Under the pieces are notes generated by a model. The model ran no database searches and had not been told where the DNA came from. It saw only the letters and a program-made list of their open reading frames with translations. Positions 1 to 61,350 of a stretch of DNA of 64,000 nucleotides are shown here, in pieces. The stretch is taken from the NCBI RefSeq assembly GCF_963921235.1, contig NC_086097.1, forward strand, positions 65,412,001 through 65,476,000. The letters run 5' to 3'. The position numbers and the translations under genes are program-made. Positions within the stretch are counted from its first letter, which is position 1. Every line of letters begins with the position of its first letter. The stretch comes from Mobula hypostoma (taxonomy: Eukaryota).

Positions 1-1088
1 TTTGGGAAGTACTACTTCTGACTACCTGTGTGATAACATCATCACACAAGGTGACCAGAACAAGTGTGGTTTGAAGGCCCAACTACAGCATAGCCCCTCA
101 CCATCGAGTTTGGAGATGGCTTCATCTTGCAAGTTGGTCTTGGGAGAAGCACAGTCAATGTGATCCATCTTGTAGCAAATCAGACAACAGCATGGACTGA
201 TTGTTATTGACCGGAACTAAAGGGCCATGATAAGTTTTCTGAAATCATTTCACCTGATTTGTACTTAAGTGAAAAAACAAAATTTTGCACTAAGATGTTG
301 CTAAAATAATTCGAATCAACAAGTATTTAGAGATGGGGGGTTTTACTGGGGTGATTGAGGTTTACTCAAAATGCTAAATTTGTTCGTCCATGGTAATGAT
401 GCAATTCCACAAGATAATCTAAGATTAGAGCACAGCTGCATCAACATCTAGTTTTTAATTAGTTATGGCTGCACTCTACAGCCTCGACTAATGGTACTCA
501 AAAAAAGTTTGATTGAAATCACAATTATTTTGTGCATCTTGCAGCACTTAATCTTTTTTCTATTAAATGCAAACAATTTTACCAGATAAAAGAAAATTAT
601 AACTTAATGGTATGAGCAAACATGATCTGACTATTCACAGATGCTGAACTATACTCAATCATTGGGCTTCACATCCTTTCAAAACAATTTCTGACGAGGC
701 AATATATATTTGTCTTTGCAAATGTTGCCACAAGTCATGTTGCCTGACTTTAGTACTTTCTGTCTTCTAAATTTTTTTTAAACTAGTAGCAGGTTACAAG
801 TAATTCTGCTTGGGGAGAAATAAATCTAAATGCCCAATCATTCCTAAATAGCAGGATATTCTAAATGAATCTGGAACAGATGTTGATTTTGCTTTGCAGC
901 AGACACCAACAACTGAATATCCTGATCGTGCTAGTAATTCATAAATTCATCATGAAGAACAATGATCACAGCTACATTTATTCAATACTTAAAGAACAGG
1001 AATTCCGCAGATGCTGGAAATTCAAGCAACACACATCAAAGTTGCTGGTGAACGCAGCAGGCCAGGCAGCATCTCTAGGAAGAGGTAC

Positions 1089-1124
1089 AGTCGACGTTTC
1101 AGGCCAAGACCCTTCGTCAGGATT
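1089..1124 (-). ncRNA. Minimal type I hammerhead ribozyme in pLTR (stem I mismatch)
   Basis: Minus strand AATC-CTGACGA-AGGGTCTTGGCCT-GAAA-CG-TC-GACT. Confidence 0.8.
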
Positions 1125-1414
1125 AACTGAAGGAAGAGTTAGTAAGAGATTTGAAAGTGGGAGGGGGAGGGGGAGATCCAAAATGATAGGAGAAGACAGG
1201 AGGAGGAGGGATGGAGCCAAGAGCTGGACAGGTGATAGGCAAAAGGGATATGAGAGGATCATGGAACAGGAGGCCCAGGGAGGAAGACAAGGTGGGGGGG
1301 GGGGGAACCAGAGGATGGGCAAGGGGTATAGTCAGAGGGAGAAAAAGGAGAGTGAGGGAAAGAATGTGTGTGTAAAAATAAATAACAGATGGGGTACGAG
1401 GGGGAGGTGGGGCA

Positions 1415-1804
1415 TTAGCGGAAGTTAGAGAAGTCAATATTCATGCCATCAGGTTGGAGGCTACCCAGACGGAATATAAGGTGTTGTTCCTCCAACCTGA
1501 GTGTGGCTTCATCTTTACAGTAGAGGAGGCCGTGGATAGACATGTCAGAATGGGAATGGGATGTGGAATTAAAATGTGTGGCCACTGGGAGATCCTGCTT
1601 TCTCTGGCGGACAGAGCGTAGGTGTTCAGCAAAGCAGTCTCCCAGTCTGCGTCGGGTCTCACCAATGTATAGAAGGCCACATCGGGAGCACCGGACGCAG
1701 TATATCACCCCAGCCGACTCACAGGTGAAGTGTCGCCTCACCTGGAAGGACTGTTTGGGGCCCTGAATGGTGTAAGGGAGGAAGTGTAAGTGCATGTGTA
1801 GCAC
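1415..1804 (-). pseudogene. Penelope GIY-YIG endonuclease domain (ORF C-terminus, frameshifted from RT)
   Basis: GVIYCVRCSRCGLLYIGETRRRL...EHLRSV...VATHFNSTSH...EQHLIFRLGSLQPDGMN matches the PLE GIY-YIG pattern. Confidence 0.92.
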
Positions 1805-2344
1805 TTGTTCCGCTTACAAGGATAAGTGCCAGGAGGGAGATCAGTGGGGAGGGATGGGGGGGACGAATGGACAAGAGAGTCACGTAGGGAGCGATCCCTG
1901 CGGAAAGCAGAGACGGGCGGGAGGGAAAGATGTGCTCAGTGGTGGGATCCCGCTGGAGGTGGTGGAATTTACGGAGAATAATATGTTGGACCCAGAGGCT
2001 GGTGGGGTGGTAGGTGAGGACCAGGGGAACCCTATTCCTAGTGGGGTGGCGGGAGGATGGAGTGAGAGCAGATGTGCGTGAAATGGGGTAGATGCGTTTG
2101 AGAGCAGAGTTGATGGTGGAGGAAGGGAAGCCCCTTTAAAAAAGGAGGAAATCTCCCTCATCCTGGAATGAAAAGCCTCATCCTGAGAGCAGATGCAGCG
2201 GAAACAGAGGAATTGCGAGAAGGGGATGGCATTTTTGCAAGAGACAGGGTGAGAAGAGGAATAGTCCAGGTAGATGTGAGAGTCGGTAGGCTTATAGTAG
2301 AAATCAGTGGATAAGCTGTCTCCAGAGATAGAGACAGAAAGATC

Positions 2345-2855: not shown

Positions 2856-3329
2856 GTAAGGGCATGTGTAGCACTTGTTCCGCTTACAAGGATAAGTGCC
2901 AGGAGGGAGATCAGTGGGGAGGGATGGGGGGGACGAATGGACAAGGGAGTCGCGTAAGGAGCGATCCCTGCGGAAAGCAGAGAGAGGGGGGAGGGAAAGA
3001 TGTGCTTAGTGGTGGGATCCCGTTGAAGGTGGCGGAAGTTACGGAGAATAATATGTTGGACCCAGAGGCTGGTGGGGTGGTAGGTAAGGCCCTTCTACTC
3101 CTGCCCAAGATCCACAAACCTGCCTGTCCTGGCAGACCTATTGTCTCAGCTTGCTCCTGCCCCACCGAACTCGTTTCTGCATACCTCGACATGGTTTTAT
3201 CCCCCCTTGTTCAATCTCTCCCTACCTATGTTCTTGGCTCCATCCCTCCCCCTCCTGTCTTCTCCTATCATTTTGGATCTCCCCCTCCCCCTCCCACTTT
3301 CAAATCTCTTACTAACTCTTCCTTCAGTT

Positions 3330-3365
3330 AGTCCTGACGAAGGGTCTCGGCCTGAAACGTCGACT
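3330..3365 (+). ncRNA. Minimal type I hammerhead ribozyme in pLTR (core intact)
   Basis: AGTC-CTGACGA-AGG(GTCTCGG)CCT-GAAA-CG-TC-GACT: stem I AGTC/GACT, stem II AGG/CCT, loopless palindromic stem III (ACGT), GUC cleavage triplet. Confidence 0.9.
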
Positions 3366-3985
3366 GTACCTCTTCCTAGAGATGCTGCCTGGCCTGCTGC
3401 GTTCACCAGCAACTTTGATGTGTGTTGCTTATTCAATACTTGATGATTTTAATATCAATGAATGTATCAACTGCACAGCAAATTACAATCCAGGACAGCA
3501 TTACTGAAATGACACTTTCAGAATATATCTAATGATTCCTTCTAACGACATTGTTGTGGGGGGGGGGGTTCCAGAATTCACTGCCCACCCCTTGCTTTTT
3601 TTGAGAAAATGCCTGTAAGCCATCCTTTTGTTTGCTGCAAACCATTTTGATAAGTGTTGTTTGATGAGGAGTTTCAAGACTTTGACCTTGGTACAATTAA
3701 GGATAAATGGTAACTTAGGGATGTGCTTGGGTGCCACTGTTGGAGAAGCTCTCCATGAATTGCTCTATTGCATCTCACGGATGATACCCAAAATCTAACA
3801 GGTGCCATCGATGTTTGAGTTGGTTAATGGACTGATGAAGACTTCTTTGTCTTAGTATAATTTTCCTGAGAATTATTTTAGACATTCTGACATTAAATGC
3901 CAAGACAGTTCAATACAGACTAGTCATGGCAAACTGTTGTCTCCTGTGTTACTGCAAAAAAATACTTAAGTTTTGACCAGATGCT

Positions 3986-22625: not shown

Positions 22626-23724
22626 TAGAACATAGAATAGTACAGCACAGTACAGGCCCTTCGGCCCACAAAGTTGTGCCGACCCTTAAACCCTACCTCC
22701 CATATAACACCCCCCCCTTAAATTCCTCCATCTACCTGTCTAGTAGTCTCTTAAATTTCACTACTATATCTGTCTCCACCACTGACTCAGGCAGTGCATT
22801 CCACGCACCAACCACTCTCCGAGTAAAAAACCTTCCTCTAATATCCCCCTTGTACTTCCCACCCCTTACCTTAAAGTGATGTACTGAGCAGTGGTGCCTT
22901 GGGGAAGAGGCGCTGGCTGTCCACTCTATCTATTCCTCTTAATATCTTGTATACCTCTAACATGTCTCCTCTCATCCTCCTTCTCTCCAGAGAGTAAAGC
23001 CCTAGCTCCCTTAATCTCTGATCATAATGCATACTCTCTAAACCAGGCAGCATCCTGGTAAGTCTCTTCTGTACCCTTTCCAATGCTTCCACATCCTTCC
23101 AATAGTGAGGCAACCAGAAATGGACACAGTACTCCAAGTGTGGCCCAACCAGAGTTTTATAGAGCTGCATCATTACCCCGCAACTCTTAAACTCTATTCC
23201 TCAACTTAAGAAAGCTAACACCCCATAAGCTTTCTTAACTACCCTATCTACCTGTGAGGCAACTTTCAGGGATCTATGGACATGTACTCCCAGATCCCTC
23301 TGCTCCTCCACAATACCAAATATCCTGCCATTTACTTTGTACTCTGCCTTGGAGTTCATCCTTCCAAAGTGTACCACCTCACACTTCTCCAGGTTGAATT
23401 CCATCTGCCACTTCTCAGCCCACTTCTGCATCCTATCAATGTCTCTCTGCAATCTTTGACAATCCTCTACACTATCTACAACACCACCAACCTTTGTGTC
23501 GTCTGCAAACTTGCCAACCCACCCTTCTACCCCCACATCCAGGTTGTTAATAAAAATCACAAAAAGCAGAGGTCCCAGAACCAATCCTTGTGGGACACCA
23601 CTAGTCACAACCCCCCAACCCAAATATACTCCCTCCACCATGACCCTCTGCTCTCTGCAGGCGAGCCAATTCTCAATCCACCTGGCCAAACTTCCCTGGA
23701 TCCCATGCCTTCTGAGCTTCTGAA
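22626..23724 (-). mobile_element. CR1 LINE 3' portion (young family)
   Basis: GVPQGLVLGPLLFVIFIN, KFADDTK, YKTLVGPHLEYCVHFW; TTCTATGTTCTA tail. Confidence 0.95.
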
Positions 23725-23783
23725 ATCATTTCTTGTAATCATGGGCACAGCAGCTGCCATAACATGCTGTGTAGCATCCAGAT

Positions 23784-23878
23784 CTAGTCCTGACGAAGGG
23801 TCTCGGCCTGAAACGTCGACTGCGCCTCTTCCTATAGATGCTGCTTGGCCTGCTGCGTTCACCAGCAACTTTGATGTA
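23784..23878 (+). mobile_element. 95-bp Penelope pLTR micro-insertion (hammerhead plus tail)
   Basis: Perfect 14-bp TSD TGTAGCATCCAGAT (23770-23783 / 23879-23892); content matches the pLTR from about 3329 onward. Confidence 0.9.
23786..23821 (+). ncRNA. Minimal type I hammerhead ribozyme (core intact)
   Basis: AGTCCTGACGAAGGGTCTCGGCCTGAAACGTCGACT, identical to 3330-3365. Confidence 0.88.
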
Positions 23879-24169
23879 TGTAGCATCCAGATATAATGTT
23901 TTCCATAGTGCATCTTCAAAAAAATTAGTGACAATCATTAGGGATGTGTCAAAGAAGAAAACAGATGAGGGAGGGTTGATGGGCAGAGGTGCCAAGTGGT
24001 GGAGTTTTAGAAGTGTACTGAGAGAGATGCTGCTGGGTGACAGGTGAAAACATCAGAATGGAGGCACATGGGATGGAAAAAGCGAAGTGAACGAAGGAAG
24101 AATGACCCTATGTGAATCGCTGAGAATGGGAAAGGAACACAGGGCGTGAGGGTTGCCATTGCACTGAAC

Positions 24170-26539: not shown

Positions 26540-28659
26540 CTGTATTAAAACAAGGGCCACATACTGAAATTAAGATGTCAACACAATGGTCAATAACATT
26601 GCTGCCCAATGATGCTTCACCGGTACAATGCAATGAGATTGCTCCAAGAGGAGTGCAACTCTGGATTTCAGTTCCCCAATGAATTCCCAAAGTCCTGCAA
26701 ATCATTCTCTCTCAAATACGATCCAGTTCCTTTTTGAAGATCAATTGACTGATTGCCCCAACCCCCACACATAGAAAATTCCAAGTTAAAACTGCTGCTA
26801 GTAAAATAGGCTTCCCTCACCTTTCAAGTCTTCTAACCATCATGAAGTTACTATCATAGAGAAAACGATGGGCTGGGGAGAACTGTGCAGCCAAACAATG
26901 TCTGGGGTGGCGGGTGGGGGGAAAGGCAGCTTCCACCGCATCTATCAGGAGCAGAGACTATGGGACCTGGATAGTCTGTCCACACACATTGAGAAGTTGC
27001 AGACTATCCCTGGCAAAGACATACTGGCCAGGGTACAGCCTTAAGCCCCACATCAAGGCAGTGAGCAGCCATACCACTTGCTCTGACTTGCTTGACATCA
27101 TTGGCAGCCACTCCACACTGAGACAAATTCTTGGCACCCAGGTTCCCAGTGCAGCAATGGAGAAGATAGGGGTAACCCAAAGAGTTCACAAGTAGGAATT
27201 TTGGCCACAGAAGATGCCTGCACTCCCAGAGTCAGAAAATCCATAACAATAGACTCCCGAAAGCTATTCATATGTATGCACTATACATGCATCAATGAGC
27301 AGGGGAGGACCTGTAAACTTGGAAAGGATCCTTTCAATACTGATTCCATTAGCACTCTCATTTCTGGAAAAGCACATAGCATGCTGAGCTAGGCACTGTC
27401 TTTTACCATTTTTTTTAAAATAGACTAGCCATTAACATCGTGATATATTAACATTGTGTTTGCAAGTCATAAGTTATTATAAAATTGACCTATTGTGCTT
27501 TCCAATATAGAAGTTGTAGTATTGTTTTATAAGAATCCAAAGTTTTGTTAAATTTCAGTATGCAAATCATGAAAGTTTAATCATTTTGGATTAGACATAC
27601 ACCAACACATTTCAGATTAAATTGGATAAATTTAATTTAAATAATTTATGACAATTAATCCTGTTATAATTTTGAATCTATTGTTTGTTTTAATATAGAT
27701 TTTTTATTTTATCACATTCCTATGTTTAAGACAAAAAAAAACTCCCTTCATGAAAACATCAAGGGGCAATTATTTTTAAATTGAAATTATAGCTCAGGTG
27801 GAACGGCAGTGTCAGGGAGATGCCATAACCATGAGGCCTGAATGGTTTTTAATTTTTGGTCCTTCTTTGCATCTGACTGGCCTTCTGTTACAACACAAAC
27901 CCAATGTATCTGCAGTTAAACTTTTCAACAATCTTTTGCTACCTCTCATTTTATCTCTCTGAGTTAAAATATGTACAGCAAAAAGAGAAGGTGAGAAGCC
28001 AACAACATTGTAAGACCGATGCAAGCAGAGCAAGAAAAGCATGGTATCACTCTGGAATACAATACCATGAGCATCAGTGAAAATGGGGCTATGGCTATGT
28101 TACTTGTGTTATACCCTGGTTTAAGACCTTGTTTTATTGTATTAATACATTTATGATGCTGGGTATTATATCTTCTGTGATTTTCTCAAAAAGCAATGTG
28201 TTCCTTTAATTACAATATACAATGTGTAATTCCGTCGATTCATAAGTTAGGTTTGTTGAATTAACCAATAGGATTTAGCTTGTTAATATTTGGCCAATAA
28301 AATGCCCCAGAATATCCTGGATCGACAGGAGGTAGCTATTTTCGAGAGAGTGAGAGTGAGAAAGAAGAAATAAGGAAAATTGAAACTGATAACACACATA
28401 ACAGAGGAACATGAACACATTTTGAAGGACAAATACTGCTGTTGGGAAATCTTCATGCAGTCTCGTGGATAATGTACAGATAACTTGTAATTAGCTAGTA
28501 ATCACACACCCTTGGAGAAAGTTTGAGATGCCTTTCAGCTAATATGTGTGTCATGGGCTCATTTCTTTATTTTGTTTGTTACAGTTTGAAATATTTTGTC
28601 AGTACAACTTTAATCTAATTATATACTGGCATATACAGAAGACAGTAAGTGGGAATAAC

Positions 28660-29660: not shown

Positions 29661-30525
29661 GCTTTTTGGCAAACAGTAAATTTGCATGTGTGGTCTGTGT
29701 TCATATTAGTAACAATCCTACTTTTCCTTAAAAAGAATATTTAAACTTTTATGTTTTGTATTTACCCATGTTTATTTATTGGAAATGGCCTTCTCAACAT
29801 TATTCCCATACATTGTCGAGCTATGTTACTGTTAGTTTGTATTCACAGTAATAGCTAGCTCATTACAAGCCTACAGTGAGTGGGTTACATGCTTTTGTGG
29901 CTTGTTTGGAATGAATGCTGCATGAATGTTATACTTTGGCTGTATATTGATTGGATAGCCTGTATAGCCCGGGGCAACTTATTGGCCAAATGTTAGCAAG
30001 ACAAATCTTATTGGCCAATTCAACAAGCCTACCTTATCAATAAACTGAATTACACAACTGTATAATGTAATTAAAGGAACACATTGCATTTTGAGAAAAT
30101 CTGCAGAAAATAAAACACCCAAGAGCAGAGCTGTATTAATACAATAAAGCAAGGTGTTAAACCAGGGTATTACACTTGTAACCATTCATTTACCTTAGTA
30201 AATGTAGCAAAGTGACTTCAAGTTGAATTGCTAACAATGCCACATCCTAATGATCCCCCCTTCTGCTAGGTGAAATCTTCTTTCTCTCAACAAATCGAAT
30301 ATACCACTGATTAAGTTGATGTTAATGGAATTATGGTGAATTTCTACCTCACTGCTTCTTGTGGAGGGGATTACAGCTTTCAAGCACACAGCAAATAATA
30401 GTGGGAATCACAGACCAGAAGAGAACTAGGCAATAGGTGGCTGTCTCTTTTTCCAATTCTGCTGTGCAAGAAGTCAAGAGGCAAGCTAACCAGCTACAAG
30501 AAAAAAATCTTCTGGTCCCATGTTT

Positions 30526-30746
30526 AAAATGCAAACAACAGGAATTCTGCAGATGCTGGAAATTCAAGCAACACACATCAAAGTTGCTGGTGAACGCAGC
30601 AGGCCAGGCAGCATCTCTAGGAAGAGGTACAGTCGACGTTTCAGGTCGAGAGTCCTGACGAAGGGTCTCGGCCTGAAACGTCAACTGTACCTCTTCCTAG
30701 AGATGCTGCCTGGCCTGCTGCGTTCACCAGCAACTTTGATGTGTGT
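30526..30746. mobile_element. 221-bp fold-back Penelope pLTR element
   Basis: TSD TGGTCC(C/T)ATGTTT (30513-30525 / 30747-30759); 83-bp inverted arms 30569-30651 / 30666-30748. Confidence 0.92.
30651..30686 (+). ncRNA. Minimal hammerhead ribozyme at the fold-back apex (stem I mismatch)
   Basis: AGTC-CTGACGA-AGGGTCTCGGCCT-GAAA-CG-TC-AACT. Confidence 0.75.
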
Positions 30747-30959
30747 TGGTCCTATGTTTGCTAGTTTATGAGTTATTAGAAATTCCCAGCTTCATTGCTG
30801 AAAATATGAAGTAAGGTTATGAAATGTAGTTCTTTTGAGATAATAGAGGAGAATATTGAAGGAGCAGAGGAGAGATAGAAAACTAAGACCTGAGTTGCAC
30901 CAGTTTGCTTCCTAAGCTGTACCAAACATCAATCAAGCATTAACCATTCATGCAACAAC

Positions 30960-38577: not shown

Positions 38578-39505
38578 AAATGTCTGCAGAAATTAGTGTT
38601 CAGCAATGGAGGGAAATAAACACTTGAATCCTTCATCAGGACCGGAAATGAAGGAGGCAGAAGCCAGAATAAAAAAGGTGGGGGGAGGGGAAACAGTGCA
38701 AACTGGCAAGTGATAGGTGTGACTAGTTGAGCCGGAAGGTGGGTCAGTGAGGGAGGAGGAGCAGAAAGGGGATATGTGGAAGAGGGAAAGGGCTGAAGGA
38801 GGAAACTAACAGGATACTGGCAGATAGGCAATGAGGAGATCCTGCCTTTCATGGCAGACAGAATGAAGGTGCTCGATACCAGGAGGCAGGATCTCCTGAT
38901 GGCCACCCGTTTCAATTTGACTTCCCATTCCCTTTCCGACATTATAGTCCACAACCTCATCGACTGCCACAATGAGGCCACACTCAGGTTGTAGAGCAAC
39001 ACCTCATATTCCGTCTGGGTAGCCTTTAAGCCTGACAGCATGAACATTGACTTCTTCAGCTTTGGTAATTCCCCACTCCCTTCTTCCTTCTTTTTTTCTG
39101 TTCCCCAAACTGGTCACCCTCTCACCCCTTCTCTTCTTATCTGCCTTTCACCTCCTTCCACTTCCCTTCCTCCTCTTTCTTTCATGGTCCACTGAACTTT
39201 GTTTCCCAGTTCCTTCTTCTCCATTTCCTTCCTCAGCCCTTTCTTCTTCCACCTATCCCCTCTCACCTTCTTACTTCTTCCACGCTGCCCCTCCCACCAA
39301 AACCCCCCTCACCTCATCTGTCACCCACCAGTTTGCACTCCTTCCCCTGTCCCCACTTTCTTATTCTGGCTTCTGTCCCCTTCCTTTCCAGTCCCAATAA
39401 AGGGCCTCAGCCTGAAAGATAAACTGTTCATTCCCCTCCAGTGATGCTGGCTGACTTGCTGAATTCCTCCAACATTACGCTGCTTAAGATTTCCAGCTTC
39501 TGCAG
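38578..39505. mobile_element. Older Penelope derivative with inverted arrangement
   Basis: Minus arm to about 38878, plus arm from about 38880 carrying the GIY-YIG C-terminus (H..FRLGS..PD.MNIDF) and pLTR; decayed hammerheads at about 38625-38645 (-) and 39390-39427 (+). Confidence 0.75.
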
Positions 39506-45800: not shown

Positions 45801-46092
45801 GGCCATTTTAACAGTCAATGATGTAACTTTTTTTTTTGCAGTTGTTGCTTAGAAATAGGATCTAACATGAGGAGAGTGATTGGGCAGGATATCAGCATTG
45901 AACAGGTTTGGCAGGATGGCATGCCGACTGAGCTTGGGAATGTGGTCCACGACCAGGGACTAGAGAGGTTGTTTGTAAGCCAAAGAATTTTTTTTAAATT
46001 GAGGGATATTAGTTAGTGTAATTCTCCAAGATGGCTTACAATGGGAAATAAAGTTAAAAAGTAAGGACAATTAATCACTCCCTTAATATTAC

Positions 46093-46299
46093 AAAAACAT
46101 GCAAAATTTGCTATGTTTCTTAAATTTGTATTTGCAATCATAAATTTAAAGAGAAAATTATAAAAACATGGAAAATTTGCTATGTTTCTTAAATTTGTAT
46201 TTGCAATCATAAATTTAAAGAGAAAATTATAAAAACATGGAAAATTTGCTATGTTTCTTAAATTTGTATTTGTAATCATAAATTTAAACAGAAAATCAT
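46093..46299. repeat. Minisatellite, 3 x 69 bp
   Basis: Units start at 46093, 46162 and 46231 and are nearly identical. Confidence 0.95.
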
Positions 46300-48409
46300 T
46301 GAAATATGACAGCCTTACTTCATAAAAAGCAGGTCATTCAGTGAAAATGTCAGGACGTCTCTTGCTATCTGTGTTAACATCCATTGATTACTGCATATAG
46401 TTCAGTTCCCATTTCACTGAGTTATTAACTATTACTTAGGACACCTATGTCACAATTCATTTGCACGTAATCTTTTTCAAGGAAGTACAAACTACCCACA
46501 AAGTATCTAACCTTGCATTCACACCTTTCAAACAATATCTAACCTGACATTGTTTTTAAGAATCATTTAAACAATCTGTCACCTTTTCTCACTTTTCTAA
46601 CAAATAACATGAGTATGGGTGTATGCCCATTATCTTCTCTATTCAAATCAAAGGATTAATCTAATTTTAAGATGATGACAGGAAAAAAATCAAAATTGCT
46701 CCCTTAAAGTTCTTAAACAACCAGGCCGTTTAGCACTTCTGGCTTCAAATGGATAGTATATTACAGAATTGCTGCAGAAAAATAACTTCACTCTTGAGAA
46801 AGACAACATTATGAACTTATCTGTGAAGAAAATAATAAATTTCATACTTTATATCAATGTCAATTTCCATTTTCAACAAAGAACTGAAGTATCTTAAATC
46901 TCAAAGGAATTGAGACATGCCACTAAAAGTTAGAGACGTATTAACAGTTCTCAATGGGAAAGTTGATTTTCCCAGTCTCGTAATACTACAGTAATTTGGA
47001 AAAGAAGGGATTTAGTTTGAGTTACTTAATAAGAAGTCATCACTACAATACAAATGCTAACTTTCAGATAAAATATTCTGATTATGTACGATAATACATT
47101 GTCAAACTATAGGGACTAATTTGCTCTGTCTACAGTTAACGGTGTTCCCATTATAGGCAGTTTTGGACATGGTGTTTGACCTTTGACAACAGCACAGTTA
47201 TTTCCCACAAGTTGGAGCCTGGACAATAGTTTACTTTATGCCTTTAGTTCAGGCTACTATGTTTCTTCAGGAAGATCTCAAGCAGAAAAGCCAACATCCC
47301 TGACAAGCACGAGAGAAGGCACCAAGGGTCCAAATAGTAAATGTTGGAAAACAAATGGCAAAGCACACAAAATGACATCTGGAATCCTAACGGGCCACCA
47401 AAGATTCTCAATCCAAGGAGGAATTAATACTGTTTTTTCACCATCCCTTGTGCTAACTTCTCTGTTTATAGACAGTAATAAATGATTCTTAAAAACATAT
47501 TTAGGTCATGATGTCATATACCACCAGCATGTAGCGTTGTTTTATTGCACTTGTAGTCAAAATATGCCCCTATACCCACATGTCAGGAAAGCTGACTCTT
47601 TCATTACTTCTGGATTCACTTTTGTTGGACAAATACTTCTGGATTTTAAAAAGGGAAACTTTTTTTTAAATGGCCAGTGATCCCATGCAGCAGTAAAATT
47701 CACACCAGTATCTTCCTACATATTATTATTATTACACTGTGTTGTAAGAAACCAAGAAGCTAAAGTTTCCTAGCATGACAAAAAGCAAACAGAACAAAAA
47801 ACAATGGTGGAATGTCTAAAAACATTAACAGTCTATTTCTTCACTTTAGATCTGTTGTGAGCATTGCTAGACCTTCCAACTTATAATCAATTAATATCAC
47901 AAAGAAGCTATAGATCATTGTTATTTTTGTTTGATGGTGAACTCAAATTGCCATTGGACTTCAGAACAAAATACAGCCAGTCTTTAACGTCTGCCAACCT
48001 GAATTCAAAGTATTCAAAACATGCAGCAGTACACTCAGAACCTGTCTTATACTCTTCTATTGATATTGGTGTTGGTTTATTGATGTCACATGTACCAAGA
48101 TACAGTGAAAGGCTCATCTTGCATAGTTCATAAAAATCAAAATCATTTCCTATACTACTGAAATCAATGCAATTACTGTTGGGTTGGGTGTAAAAAATAA
48201 GCACCGTGCATTAGTATGGAAAATAAATTCTAACATCTGCAATGACATTCACCTGTCTCAAAAATGATTAAAGTTTCAAAATTTCAGTCACCAACTGAAA
48301 TTCTGAGTGGAAATTAGCAGTGGACTATTTATTTGAATATTCATTATTCAAAATCCTTATGTTAAACTTGCGGGTGGATGGGGTAGAGATGCATCTCTAC
48401 CAAAGACGA

Positions 48410-51400
48410 TAAGATATCTAAGGAGTAGAATTAGGCCATTTCACCATTTCATTATAACTGATCCATTTCTTTCTCAGCATGAACCTCCTGCCTTCTCCTG
48501 AATCAACAAGCAAATTAACCATTAAGGAATCCTGCACGAGGAATCCCGAGTCCCCATGAACCTCAGATTATTTCTCTCCATTTAGAACATAGTCTACACT
48601 TCAATTTCTTCTACCAAAGTGCATGACCATACACTTCCCAACACTGTATTCCATCTTTCACTTCTTATTCCATTCTCCTAATTTGTCTAAGCTCTTCTAC
48701 AGCCTCTCTACTTCCTCAACAACTGTTTTGGCCAAAAAAGCCATCCATTCCATCATCTAAAGCACTGACATATAACGTAAAGAGAAGTGGTCAAAACAGA
48801 GACCTCTTTGGAACACCACTAGTCACCAGCAGCTAGCTAGAAAAGGTTCCGTTTAACATAGAATAGAACATAGAACAGGACAGTACATTACAGGCCCTTC
48901 GGCCCACAATGTTGTGCCAACCCTCAAACCCTGACTCCCATATAACCCCCCACCTTAAATTCCTCCATATACCTATCTAGTAGTCTCTTAAACTTCACTA
49001 GTGTATCTGCCTCCACCACTGACTCAAGCAGTGCATTCCATGCACCAACCACTCTCTGAGTAAAACACCTTCCTCTAAAATCCCCCTTGAACTTCCCATC
49101 CCTTACCTTAAAGCCATTTCCTCTTGTATTGAGCAGTGGTGTCCTGGGGAAGAGGTGCTGGCTATCCACTCTACCTACTCCTCGTATTATCTTGTACACC
49201 TCTACCATGTCTCCTCTCATCCTCCTTCTCTCCAAAGAGTAAAGCCCTAGCTCCCTTAATCTCTGATCATAATGCATACTCTCTAAACCAGGCAGCATCA
49301 TGGTAAATCTCCTCTGTACCCTTTCCAATGCTTCCACATCCTTCCTATAGTGAGGCGACCAGAACTGGACACAGTACTCCAAGTCTGGCCTAACAAGAGT
49401 TTTATAGAGCTGCATCATTACATCGCGACTCTTAAACCCTATCCCTCGACTTAAGAAAGCTAACACCCCTTAAGCATTCTTAACTACCCTATCTACCTGT
49501 GAGGCAACTTTCAGGGCTCTGTGAACATGCACCCCCAGATCCCTCTGCTCCTCCACTCTACCAAGTACCCTGCCATGTACTTTGTACTCTGCCTTGGAGT
49601 TTGTCCTTTCAAAGTGTACCACCTCACACTTCTCCGGCCACTTCTCCTCACACTCCATCTGCCACTTCTCAGCCCACTTCTGCATCCTATCAATGTCTCT
49701 CTGCAATCTTCGACAATCCTCTACACTATCTACAACACCACCAACCTTTGTCTCATCTGCAAACTTGCCAACCCACCCTTCTACCCTCACATCCAGGTCA
49801 TTGATAAAAATCACTAAAAGTCGAGGTCCCAGAACAGATTCTTGTGGGACACCACTGGTCACAATCCTCCAATCTGAATGTACTCCCTCCACTACCACCC
49901 TCTGCCTTCTACAGGCAAGCCAATTCTGAATCTACCTGGCCAATCTTCCCTGGATCCCATGCCTTCTGACTTTCTGAATAAGCCTACCGTGTGGAACCTT
50001 GTCAAATGCCTTACTAAAATCCATATAGATCACATCCACTGCACTACCCTCATCTATATGCCTGGTCACCTCCTCAAAGAACTCTATCAGGCTTGTTAGA
50101 CACGATCTGCCCTTCACAAAGCCATGCTGACTGTCCCTGATCCGACCATGATTCTCTAAATGCCCATAGATCCTATCTCTAAGAATCTTTTCCAACAGCT
50201 TTCCCACCACCGACGTAAGGCTCACTGGTCTATAATTACCCAGACTATCCCTACTAACTTTTTTGAACAAGGGGACAACATTCGCCTCCCTCCAATCCTC
50301 CCGTACAATTCCTGTGGAAACGAGGACATAAAGATCCTAGCCAGAGACTCAGCAATCTCTTCCCTCGCCCCGTGGAGCAGACCTGGGGAATATTCCATCA
50401 GGTCCCGGGGACTTATCCATCCTAATGTACTTTAACAACTCCAACACCTCCTCTTCCTTAATATAACATGCTCCAGCACATCAACCTCACTCATATTGTC
50501 CTCACGGTCATCAAGTTCCCCCTCATTGGTGAATACCGAAAAGAAGTATTCATTGAGGACCTCACTCACTTCCACAGCCTCCAGGCACATCTTCCCACCT
50601 TTATCTCCTGTCATCCTTTTGTTCTTCACATAATTGAAGAATGCCTTGGGGTTTTCCTTTACCCTACTCGCCAAGGCCTTCTCATGCCCCCTTCTTGCAC
50701 TTCTCAGCCCCTTCTTAAGCTCATTTCTTGCTTCCCTATATGTCTCAATAGACCCATCTGATCCTTGCTTCCTAAACCTCATGTATGCTGCCTTCTTCCA
50801 CCTGACTAGATTCTCCACCTCACTTGTCACCCATGGTTCCTTCACCCTACCATTCTTTATCTTCCTCACCAGGGCAAATTTATCCCTAACATCCTGCAAG
50901 AGATCTCTAAACATCGACCACATGTCGATAGTACATTTCCCTGCAAGAACATCATCCTAAATCACACCCACAAGTTCTAGCCTTTTGGCCTCAATTTGCC
51001 TTTCCCCAATTAAAAATTTTCCTGTCCTCTCTGATTCTTACCTTTTCCATGATAAATGCTAAGGGCCAGGGAGTGGTGGTCACTGTCCCTCAGATGCTCC
51101 CCCACTGAGAGATCTGTGACCTGACCCAGTTCGTTACCTAGTAATAGATCTAGTATGGCATTCCCCCTAGTCGGCCTGTCCACATACTGTGACAGGAACC
51201 GTCCTGGACACACTTAACAAACTCTGCCCCATCTAAACCCTTGGAGCTAATCAGGTGCCAAACAATATTAGGGAAGTTAAAATCACCCATGATAACAACC
51301 CTGTTATTTTTGCACCTTTCCAAAATCTGCCTCCCAATCTGCTCCTCTGTATCTCTGCTGCTACTAGGGGGCCTATAGAATACCCCCAATAGAGTAACTG

Positions 51401-53220
51401 CTCCCTTCCTGCTCCTGACTTCCACACATATTGACTCAAAAGAGGATCCTGCTACATTACCCACCCTTTCTGTAGCTGTAATAGTACCCCTGACCAGTAA
51501 TGCCACCCCTCCTCCCCTTTTTCCTCTGTCTATCCCTTTTAAAGCACTGAAATCCAGGAATATTGAGAATCCATTCCTGCTCTGGTGCCAGCCAAGTCTC
51601 TGTAATGGCCACTACATCATAATTTCATGTATGTATCCAAGCTCTCAGTTCATTATCTTTGTTCCTGATGCTTCTTACATTGAGGTACACACACTTCAGC
51701 CCTTCTGCCTTACTACTTTTACACCATTTATTCTGCTTCTCTTTCCTCAAAGCCTCTCTATATTTATTTCCACTATTTGCCTCCTGCCAATCAGCCACTG
51801 CTTTATCCATGCTAGCATCTTTCCGGCAATACCATGGGCTCTCAACTTGTTAAGTAGCCTCATTTGTGGCACCGTGTCAACGGCCTTCTGAAACTCTAAG
51901 ATCACAACATCCATTTATTCTCCTTTGTCTGAACTGATTGTCATTTCTTCAAAGAATTCCAACAGATTTGCCAGGCATGACTTTCCCTTAAGGAAACCTT
52001 ACTGACTTTAGCCTGTTTTATCATATTTCTCCAAGTACCCCAAGTTGACACCCTTAATAGTCAACTTCAACATTTTCCATCCACTGAGGTCAAGCTAACT
52101 GGCTTATAATTTCCTTTCTTCTGCCTCTCTCTTTTTTTGAATTGTGGAGTGACATTTACAATTTTTCAATCCTGTGGAACAATGCCACAATCTGTTGATT
52201 CTTGAAAGATCATTACTAATACCGCCACAATTTCTTCAGCCACCTCTTTCAGAACCCTGGGATGTAGGCCAGGTGATTTAACTACCTTCAGACTTTTTAA
52301 TTTCCCAAGCACTTTCTCCCTAGTAATTGCAACTTCATTCACTTCTGTCCCCCGCCCCCCGACAATTTTGAACTTCTGGCATACTGCTAATGACTTCCAC
52401 AGTGAAGACTGATGCAAAAAACATATTCAGTTCATCTGTTATTTCCTTGTTCCTCATTACTACCTCTCCAGCATCATTTTCCAGCAATCTGATGTTTATT
52501 CCTGCCTCTCTTTTACTTTTTATATATCTGAAGAGACTGTTGGCATCCTCTTCAATATTATTGGCTAGCTTACCATCAAATTCCATCTTTTCCCAGTAAC
52601 TTTTGCTCTATTTTATGCTCTCTCTTTGGTTTTTATGCTGGCTTTGACATTCTTTGTCAGCCACAGTTACATCATCCTGCCTTTAGAATATTTCTTCTTC
52701 TTTGGGATGTATCTATCCTATGCCTTTTAAATTCCTCCCAGAAACTCCACCCACTGGTGCTCTACCATCATCCCTGCTATAGTTCCTGGCCAATCAATTT
52801 TGGCCAGCTTGTCTCCCACGCCTCTGTAATTCTCTCTCTTCCATTGTAATCTGACTTTAGCTTTTCCCTCTCAAAATGCAGGGTGAATTCTATCATATTA
52901 TGATCACTGGCTCATCAAACTTCCTTTGTCTTAAACTCTCTAGTCAATTCCAGTTTCTTGCACAACACTCAATCTAGAATAGTTGATCCCCTTGTGGGCT
53001 CAACCACAAGCTGCTCTAAAATGCCATCTCATAGACATTCCACAAATCCCCCTCTTGGGATCTGGCACCATCCTGATTTTGACACATTGAAATACCCCGT
53101 GACTATCGTAGGATTGCCTTTTTGACATGCAATTTCTATCTCCCATTGTTATTTGCAGCCCACATCATTGCTACTGTTGGGAGATCTGTATACAATTCCC
53201 ATCAGGGTCCTTTCACCCTT
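48410..53220 (-). mobile_element. Older CR1 LINE (segments 48410-48855 and 51763-53220), split by a younger CR1
   Basis: Sequence is continuous across the insert (...AAAAGGTTCCGTTT|ATTTCCACTATTTGCC...); remnants KSPG.LHPRVLKEVAEEI, FRYIKSKR, GIVYRSPNS. Confidence 0.85.
48856..51762 (-). mobile_element. Young CR1 LINE, nearly whole ORF2 (APE endonuclease plus RT), frameshifted
   Basis: CVYLNVRSIRNK, LGVFYRPP, MGDFNFPNI, NYRPVSLTSVVGKLLE, DFSKAFDKVPH, GVPQESVLGP, KFADETK; TTCTA-repeat tail; possible TTTA TSD. Confidence 0.95.
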
Positions 53221-53792
53221 TTTAATTCCACATCCCATTCCCATTCTGACATGTCTATCCACGGCTTCCTCTACTGTAAAGATGAAGCCACACTCAGGTT
53301 GGAGGAACAACACCTTATATTCCGTCTGGGTAGCCTCCAACCTGATGGCATGAACATTGACTTCTCTAACTTCTGCTAATGCCCCACCTCCCCCACGTAC
53401 CCCAGCCATTATTTATTTATATACACACATTCTTTCTCTCTCTCTCCTTTTTCTCCTCTGTCCCTCTCACTATACCCCTCCCCCCACTTCCTTCTCCCTG
53501 GGCCTCCTGTCCCATGATCCTCTCATATCCCTTTTGCCAATCACCTGTCCAGCTCTTGGCTCCATCCCTCCCCCTCTGTCTTCTCCTATCATTTTGGATC
53601 TCCCACTCCCCCTCCCACTCTTAAATCTTTTACTAGCTGTTTCTTCAGTTAGTCCTGATGAAGGGTCTCGGCCTGAAACATCGACTGTACCTCTTCCTAG
53701 AGATGCTGCCTAGCCTGCTGCGTTCACCAGCAACTTTGAGGTGTGTTGGTTGAATTTCCAGCATCTGCAGAATTCCTACTGTTTGCGTTTTT
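53221..53792 (+). mobile_element. Penelope 3' fragment (endonuclease C-terminus plus pLTR), same family as 991-3428
   Basis: FNSTSHSHSDMSIHG...GSLQPDGMNIDFSNF followed by the full pLTR; no TSD seen. Confidence 0.93.
53651..53686 (+). ncRNA. Hammerhead ribozyme, CpG-decayed (stem III ACAT)
   Basis: AGTC-CTGATGA-AGGGTCTCGGCCT-GAAA-CA-TC-GACT. Confidence 0.7.
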
Positions 53793-60677: not shown

Positions 60678-61350
60678 ATATCTGGTGCTGCTGATGCAGC
60701 TTCCTCTACATCGGTGAGACCCAACGTAAATTGTGGGACCGCTTTGTTGAGGACCTTTGCTCCATCCACCAAAAGCAGAAATTTCCAGTTGCCAAACATT
60801 TTAATCCCTATCCCCATCCCCATTCCCATTCCAACATGTTGGTCCATGGCCTCCTCTCTTGCCACAAAGAGGCCACTTCTGAGGGTGGAGGAACACCTCG
60901 TATTCCATCTACGTAGCCTCCAACCTGATGGTATGAACATCGAATTCTCTTTTGGGTTTTTCCCCTCCCCCTTCCCTCTTCTTTCATTCCCCACTCTGGC
61001 TTCTTACCTCTTTTCCGCACCTGCCCATCACCCTCCCCTTGGAGGCCCTCCTTCCTTACTTTCCCCTATGGTCCACTCTCCTCTCCTATCAGATTCCTCC
61101 TTCTCCAGCCCTTTACCTTTACCATCCATCTGACTTCTCTGATCACTAGTCCTCCTCCTCATCCTCACCCCAACATTTTTTTCTAGCATCTTCCCTCTTC
61201 CTTTTCAGTCCTGAAGAAATATCTTGGCCAGAAACGTCAGTTGTTTATTCATTTCCATAGAATGATGCTGCCTGACCTGCTGAGTTCCTCCAGCATTTTG
61301 TGTGTATTGCTCTGGACTTCCAGCATCTGCAGAATCTCCTGCATTTATGA
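60678..61350 (+). mobile_element. Older Penelope 3' fragment (GIY-YIG plus pLTR, decayed hammerhead near 61206-61240)
   Basis: LYIGET, VAKHFN, EEHLVFHLRSLQPDGMNIEFS; CAGTCCTGAAGA...GAAACGTC; terminus TTCCAGCATCTGCAGAATC. Confidence 0.88.

Follow-up and report, generated by a model that had tools for sequence, protein, structure and literature searches.

Composition of the insert and its neighborhood

Positions 23784-23878 of the window, by which we mean the whole 64-kb stretch of Mobula hypostoma DNA analyzed here, hold a 95-bp insert between two exact copies of a 14-bp TSD, one on the left (23770..23783, plus strand) and one on the right (23879..23892, plus strand). Direct sequence comparison thus bears out the insert and the perfect TSD reported by the first-pass annotation, and the match between the repeats cannot be lengthened on either side. 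With coordinate zero set at the C of CTGACGA (window position 23790), minus values running upstream and plus values downstream, comparison with other copies of the family divides the insert into a single C that does not belong to the element (23784, plus strand) and pLTR sequence of a Penelope-like element (PLE) from -5 to +91 (23785..23881, plus strand), which is that of the full-length copy L201, without a mismatch across 97 nt. The extra C occupies position -6, which is T throughout the long copies (108 of 108). At the other end, the final three bases of 23785..23881 are common to the element and the right TSD (3′ microhomology); since the initial three bases of the TSD equal the following three of the element and so continue it, the element part of the insert measures 94-97 bp. 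The two nucleotides that had been placed ahead of stem I of the hammerhead are both present, with only the T being element sequence and the C foreign to it, and the roughly 57 nt of pLTR said to lie downstream correspond to the 57 nt counted after stem I.

Other copies of the family are found in the same window. A long tailed copy on the minus strand (at least 981..2100) comprises the endonuclease end, 3′ UTR, hammerhead and tail; a short-ended copy that begins at -102 (3232..3430, plus strand) points away from it, and an older tailed copy extends from about -460 (53214..53777, plus strand). In a head-to-head pair (30523..30748, no strand assigned), the tailed minus-strand arm ends at +11 and the short plus-strand arm starts at -4; this sense arm starts at AGTCC (30651), the start that it had been claimed to share with the insert. 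Diverged, older Penelope-like copies with related hammerhead regions are located at 38630-39403 and 60681-61341. The remaining repeats include two 1.1-kb copies of a different repeat that are 89% identical (22626-23724 and 48864-49978), with the insert lying about 45 bp past the end of the former; an AT-rich tandem repeat with a 69-bp period (46085-46308); and a pair of ~210-bp inverted arms (28099-28320 and 29959-30182), 83% complementary and separated by 1.6 kb, which is possibly an old DNA transposon.

The hammerhead motif

A minimal type I hammerhead, read against the accessible part of PMC4209133, occupies 23786..23821 on the plus strand. Its layout comprises a 4-bp stem I that pairs 23786-23789 with 23818-23821 (-4..-1 with +28..+31), CUGACGA, stem II, GAAA and a palindromic stem III (ACGT), and the predicted cut falls between 23817 and 23818 (+27 and +28). 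Judged by sequence, the conserved core, helices I and II and palindromic helix III make this a minimal hammerhead. The motif had been called intact, a description that stands for the core letters and goes too far for the rest: stem III is merely the palindrome ACGT, the monomer fold contains stems I and II in the MFE structure yet is no better than that of shuffles (z +0.89), and an Rfam scan of the hammerhead returned nothing at gathering score. The weak monomer fold and the lack of an Rfam match are expected, because minimal hammerheads with a palindromic stem III need a dimer, according to the available text of PMC4209133. The PLE pLTR hammerheads described there share with the present one the core letters, the 4-bp stem I, the extra base before stem II and the palindromic, dimer-requiring stem III, and likewise occur mostly as single motifs in truncated copies; the subfamily studied here differs in having U, not C, at the first stem II pair. 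At many loci, the cores of older families keep a pyrimidine tract and a YAG overlapping stem I, often together with an upstream TTATTCTG word.

The parent element

The candidate source copy L201 is a minus-strand tandem array of 3.5-kb units (G000:C2:157228000-157237999), whose hammerhead cores are spaced by 3516 and 3514 bp and one of whose units carries an uninterrupted 1043-aa frame; partial tandems are present too, so that the pLTRs have both tandem and partial-tandem organization. The frame matches RVT_1 with an E-value of 6e-5, which is under Pfam's curated cut-off, and its translation contains GIY-YIG-like motifs that were read by eye at a place where Pfam has no match; a PDB sequence search with the 1043-aa ORF gave no match. 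A single ORF that combines RT with a GIY-YIG endonuclease at the C-terminus is the organization of an EN+ PLE. Moreover, the cysteine-rich linker of the frame has a three-cysteine motif ahead of the endonuclease, and an extra Zn-finger motif within the RT-EN linker is, in the portion of 10.1101/2021.04.23.441226 available, a Neptune feature also found in Nematis. The assignment to Neptune made from the window is accordingly upheld by the L201 translation, in the form of a Neptune-like PLE, and the insert is very probably a 5′-truncated copy of this young element; the copy itself is probably dead.

One family 33-mer matches the genome exactly 78,402 times, against 510 times for a 33-mer just beyond the tail, so that nearly all copies of the family are truncated. 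Their 3′ ends fall into two classes, at +82..102 and about +125..130, and TSD length varies from 8 to 16 bp across 31 single inserts, with modes of 13-14. Each of 48 head-to-head pairs combines one tailed arm with one arm of the other 3′-end class, a common haplotype is found in both arms of 36 of the 48 (24/29 and 12/19; shuffled means 5.4), and the breakpoints of paired arms are correlated (rho 0.43, p 0.002). The inverted pairs L316, L335 and L208 have arms that differ at subfamily-diagnostic sites, which may reflect two template RNAs in one insertion. As far as the accessible parts of 10.1101/2021.04.23.441226 and PMC3846280 go, canonical EN+ PLEs resemble this family in their 5′-truncated and inverted copies, pLTRs built from partial tandems, variable TSDs, optional tail of 30-40 bp and head-to-head inverted partner with a tail at one end only.

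5′ breakpoints cluster at the outer edge of the hammerhead

Family arms were sampled by an anchor at +47..+79 that is blind to the 5′ end. They were drawn from 40 regions of 10 kb placed at even intervals, from the surroundings of listed matches (loci as well as regions), and from the window. This gave 255 arms, one of which, at a region edge, was dropped to leave 254. The majority of the arms lie within the initial 37 Mb of contig C1, the choice of 90 loci relied on one subfamily variant, six regions stem from a list conditional on reaching -6, and the studied insert is itself one of the events; 5′ ends are uncertain by 1-4 nt because of microhomology, and the peak bin was set after a first look.

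Moving upstream from the anchor, the rate of 5′ ends per nucleotide is 0.19% at +47..33, 0.47% at +32..26 and 0.33% at +25..13, climbs to 1.56% at +12..0 and 3.64% at -1..-7 (43 of 254 arms; CI 2.6-4.9), and declines to 0.80% at -8..-20, 0.53% at -21..-40, and 0.22, 0.14 and 0.12% beyond. Relative to the upstream background (39 events per 25,594 nt of exposure at -41..-320), the peak is 24-fold for all arms and 15-fold for the 148 non-inverted ones. It is seen in tailed and short arms alike, with the highest local rate (8.7% per nt) among the 106 of 254 arms that sit in inverted joins, and of the 31 single inserts with a flanking TSD, 15 begin at -3..-8. The profile is one-sided, with 45 ends in -1..-8, 8 in -9..-16 and 43 spread over 0..+12, and forms a plateau at -3 to -7 that has no single-base spike.

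Genome-wide, 2457 of 71,855 cores are non-T at -6, and 30 such loci inspected by eye comprise about 25 junctions, three members of other families and two point changes; likewise, 2128 of 69,398 cores are non-G at -7, with about 16 junctions and 13 point variants among 30 inspected. A sharp spike at the acceptor position -6 was considered and discarded, since 13 of the 30 non-G loci are point variants and none of the ~16 junctions has a common upstream exon. Older families give a similar proportion: the upstream pyrimidine tract, whose absence is a crude proxy for a junction at about -10..0, is missing from 18 of 59 of their cores and from 52 of 190 young arms.

The hammerhead's outer edge is thus almost certainly a true hotspot of breakpoints, and the recurrent stop at the ribozyme edge that the first-pass annotation had proposed appears as the 24-fold peak at -1..-7. 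Ordinary random 5′ truncation, with the ribozyme nearby by chance, would be in line with the heavy 5′ truncation that is normal for PLEs in the part of 10.1101/2021.04.23.441226 available. However, the rates at +47..+13 (0.19-0.47% per nt) and upstream (0.12-0.22% per nt) lie far under the peak, and the uniform spread of breakpoints named beforehand as its signature is not seen (p 3e-36). This leaves chance truncation with hardly any probability, and it is refuted unless the sample, taken mostly from C1, is unrepresentative. In the titles, abstracts and partial texts covered, no report of a breakpoint hotspot at a PLE hammerhead edge was found.

A lesser excess at the cut site

Patterns with two non-element bases before +28 have 693 genome-wide matches, against 182 for +31, the only control position counted. 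By eye, 30 loci at +28 comprise about 17 inverted joins (many formed via stem I complementarity), six internal variants and seven or eight singles, compared with four singles among 15 loci at +31; in the arm sample, 5 of 254 start at +28 (p 4e-4). The excess is partly explained by stem I microhomology, and cleavage may have affected roughly one percent of the templates. Cleavage as the main cause of the hotspot was rejected, as the cut at +28 lies 33 nt downstream of the start of the insert.

The insert spans the predicted cut, which upholds the earlier deduction that its template was uncleaved or re-ligated. An uncleaved template does not imply a circle, since that state is expected for a monomeric minimal hammerhead (accessible text of PMC4209133) and uncleaved RNA is the main in vitro substrate of an anole PLE (accessible text of PMC11167929). 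That element, Poseidon PAc of Anolis, also resembles the ray family, in what is available of PMC11167929, in having two internal RT starts that define the tail, uncleaved RNA as its main template and extension of both target strands. It belongs to a different clade, and the start zones of the ray family lie upstream of the first in-frame ATG. Set against PAc, the 3′ microhomology of the ray family averages 1.1 nt in 27 TSD-flanked singles, by a measure that is biased upward, and whereas no PAc RNA reads ended at the cut in the text available, the ray family has a slight excess of 5′ ends there.

Origin of the hotspot

The 5′ end of the insert may fall within the hotspot because RT ran off the 5′ end of its RNA near -8..-4, an explanation to which we give close to an even chance. 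The endonuclease of the element would have nicked the target with a 14-nt stagger, of which the TSD is the visible trace, and RT would have started inside uncleaved element RNA at the upstream one of two start zones; the zones are suggested by the two observed 3′-end classes, with internal initiation taken from the anole PLE. RT would then have copied the ~95 nt through the ribozyme that the insert contains, and the cDNA, which ends at -5, would have been joined to the target with the one extra base that is seen. The stop itself would reflect an RNA 5′ end, provided either by a start site in the pLTR or by processing that yields a short RNA from about -8 to +300.

The one-sided profile is that expected from a template end combined with trimming. 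Among partial tandems, 10 of 13 template jump-in points fall at +274..+347, with two internal duplications left out and a uniform null that is crude, which suggests an RNA 3′ end or a third entry site near +300. Small partial tandems with jump-in points clustered at +274..+347 are found at L171, L172, L174, L178, L182-L185 and L188. Among the 30 loci that retain sequence beyond the tail, such tandems record a stop near the edge, a jump downstream and a second stop. Taken together, the partial tandems suggest that RT jumps from end to end on a short template, an RNA running from about -8 to +300; jumping between template ends is known for R2. An initiator consensus fits -11..-5, and a 3′ splice site (pyrimidine tract, YAG and branch-like motif) fits it equally; a recurrent extra G, a cap signature in L1, was not seen at the inspected junctions. 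In Drosophila virilis Penelope, the promoter is located in the pLTR (PMC2377424, in the text available). Other observations are less favorable to run-off: the peak lacks a spike at any one base, some junctions of inverted joins are visibly dictated by stem complementarity, and of the 12 copies with an ORF that extend from downstream as far as +12, just two end in -25..-6 and the other 10 continue for at least 150 nt more. The RNA for long copies hence does not start at the edge, and these 2 of 12 stops are even below the 44% of the 3′ pass (p 0.049). Self-priming on an antisense template, described in the accessible part of PMC3846280, was considered less apt, because a sense template agrees better with the TSD-flanked singles and with the in vitro results for the anole element.

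A close rival of run-off, which we nevertheless consider somewhat unlikely, is that RT stalls on a long RNA at the hammerhead edge and the cDNA is then end-joined, the obstacle being either a folded or protein-bound hammerhead or splicing factors on the 3′-splice-site-like signal that abuts stem I. The pyrimidine tract and YAG (-5..-3) are retained in 35 of 41 older-family cores with upstream sequence, in the young family another YAG lies at -9..-7, with its AG present in 108 of 108 long copies, and a D. virilis intron end maps to helix I (PMC4209133, in the parts available); yet the AG at -4/-3 also belongs to stem I, and pyrimidines abound in the 3′ UTR in any case (0.76 vs 0.88). If structure caused the stop, it should sit where RT first meets the stems on their 3′ side (+31, +19), and rates at these places are low. 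That tailed as well as short arms peak at the edge also suits a stall, and a weak excess at -16..-19, beside a branch-like A, may exist (6 of 254 arms); however, 16 of 108 long copies carry G in place of this A, and the 722 genome-wide matches of the -18 pattern, for which 7 of 20 inspected loci are true and 13 are point variants, have no matched control position. The second-pass stop in only 2 of 12 ORF-bearing copies counts against a stall as well.

Joining of the cDNA could also bias the junctions, if self-complementary cDNA ends (hammerhead stems and nearby palindromes) fold back or anneal and so fix them wherever RT stopped. The high local peak of inverted arms, the correlated breakpoints and common haplotypes of paired arms, and several junctions that use stem I complementarity or 2-nt palindromes, recurring identically (4 of 30), all accord with such a bias. 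On the other side, non-inverted inserts, including the one studied here, peak 15-fold without a fold-back partner, partial tandems stop at the edge twice running, and the TSD-flanked singles already indicated the peak at -3..-8 (15 of 31), so that we regard joining bias as a quite improbable source of the hotspot.

The proposed status of the insert as a mobile unit of its own

The first-pass annotation suggested that the insert may be a minimal, ribozyme-only mobile unit. TSD-flanked inserts of about 95-135 bp are indeed numerous, and other parts of the genome hold two tandem arrays, permuted at their ends, of a 310-nt hammerhead unit, but several lines of evidence speak against a non-autonomous element or retrozyme that makes its own copies. 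Both ends differ between copies, the 5′ ends being spread over -8..+12 and each junction being individual; the haplotype mix is much the same in 52 short arms as in 63 long ones (20 and 21, respectively, for the commonest type, with subfamily-selected loci left out); and the insert is a single copy rather than a tandem of units such as characterizes retrozymes. It also contains nothing of the sequence beyond the point where RT starts, on the downstream side, although the anole PLE requires that region in its template according to the text of PMC11167929 available, a need that by analogy would carry over to the ray family. Nor is the insert SINE-like, as it lacks both a fixed 5′ end (-8..+12) and a lineage of its own (0 differences from L201). 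With ragged ends, the haplotype mix of long copies and identity to a full-length copy over 97 nt, the reading as an independent unit is largely refuted and has only a very small probability left.

As far as can be seen from the accessible parts of PMC7229834 and 10.64898/2026.07.22.740005, non-LTR retrozymes resemble the insert in being non-coding, hammerhead-bearing and PLE-related, and differ in that the insert is a 95-bp monomer without its own lineage. Their size and layout are matched only by the 310-nt tandems L202 and L225, whose junction, unlike that of retrozymes, lies at splice-like signals and not at the ribozyme cut.

Tandem 310-nt units with a splice-like junction

Both arrays are TSD-flanked and have permuted ends, L202 (G000:C2:157812000-157821999) with four junctions between units and L225 (G000:C50:58410985-58414011) with two. 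Units meet bluntly, +303 against -6, immediately after CAG, a YAG acceptor, and immediately before the sole RTATCCTT of the 3.5-kb unit, a word that resembles the U12 donor consensus. Five of 310 sites distinguish L202 from L225, and some of these sites also vary among full-length copies, so that the two arrays are likely independent in origin.

From the position of these junctions, it is possible that the tandems derive from spliced or back-spliced RNA that was retrotransposed. The pattern is confined to two loci, none of the other junctions examined in partial tandems falls at these signals, and repeated junctions without splice-like signals also occur (L171, L182); moreover, the donor-like word also encodes V/I-S-F, and the U12 branch site is imperfect. 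A wider proposal, which we think unlikely, is that the pLTR-ORF junction forms a 310-nt exon (-6..+303) running from a conserved, hammerhead-abutting acceptor to a minor-spliceosome-type donor, and that its splicing or back-splicing frees a short hammerhead RNA or circle as the main template of mini-insertions and, within this lineage, the seed of retrozymes. If this were true, the RT ORF of the element would lie inside an intron. Nothing was found on splice-made PLE circles or on U12-type introns in Penelope retrotransposons in the titles, abstracts and partial texts searched.

Implications

Taken alone, the insert is one unremarkable truncated copy of a PLE; what informs is the pattern across the population, together with the tandems joined at splice-like signals. 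Young insertions numbering in the tens of thousands preserve a sharp stop at the ribozyme's outer edge and a lesser one at its cut site, and these breakpoints address how PLE cDNA synthesis ends and what role the hammerhead plays in it, while giving exact coordinates for 5′ RACE and for in vitro tests with a natural full-length copy.
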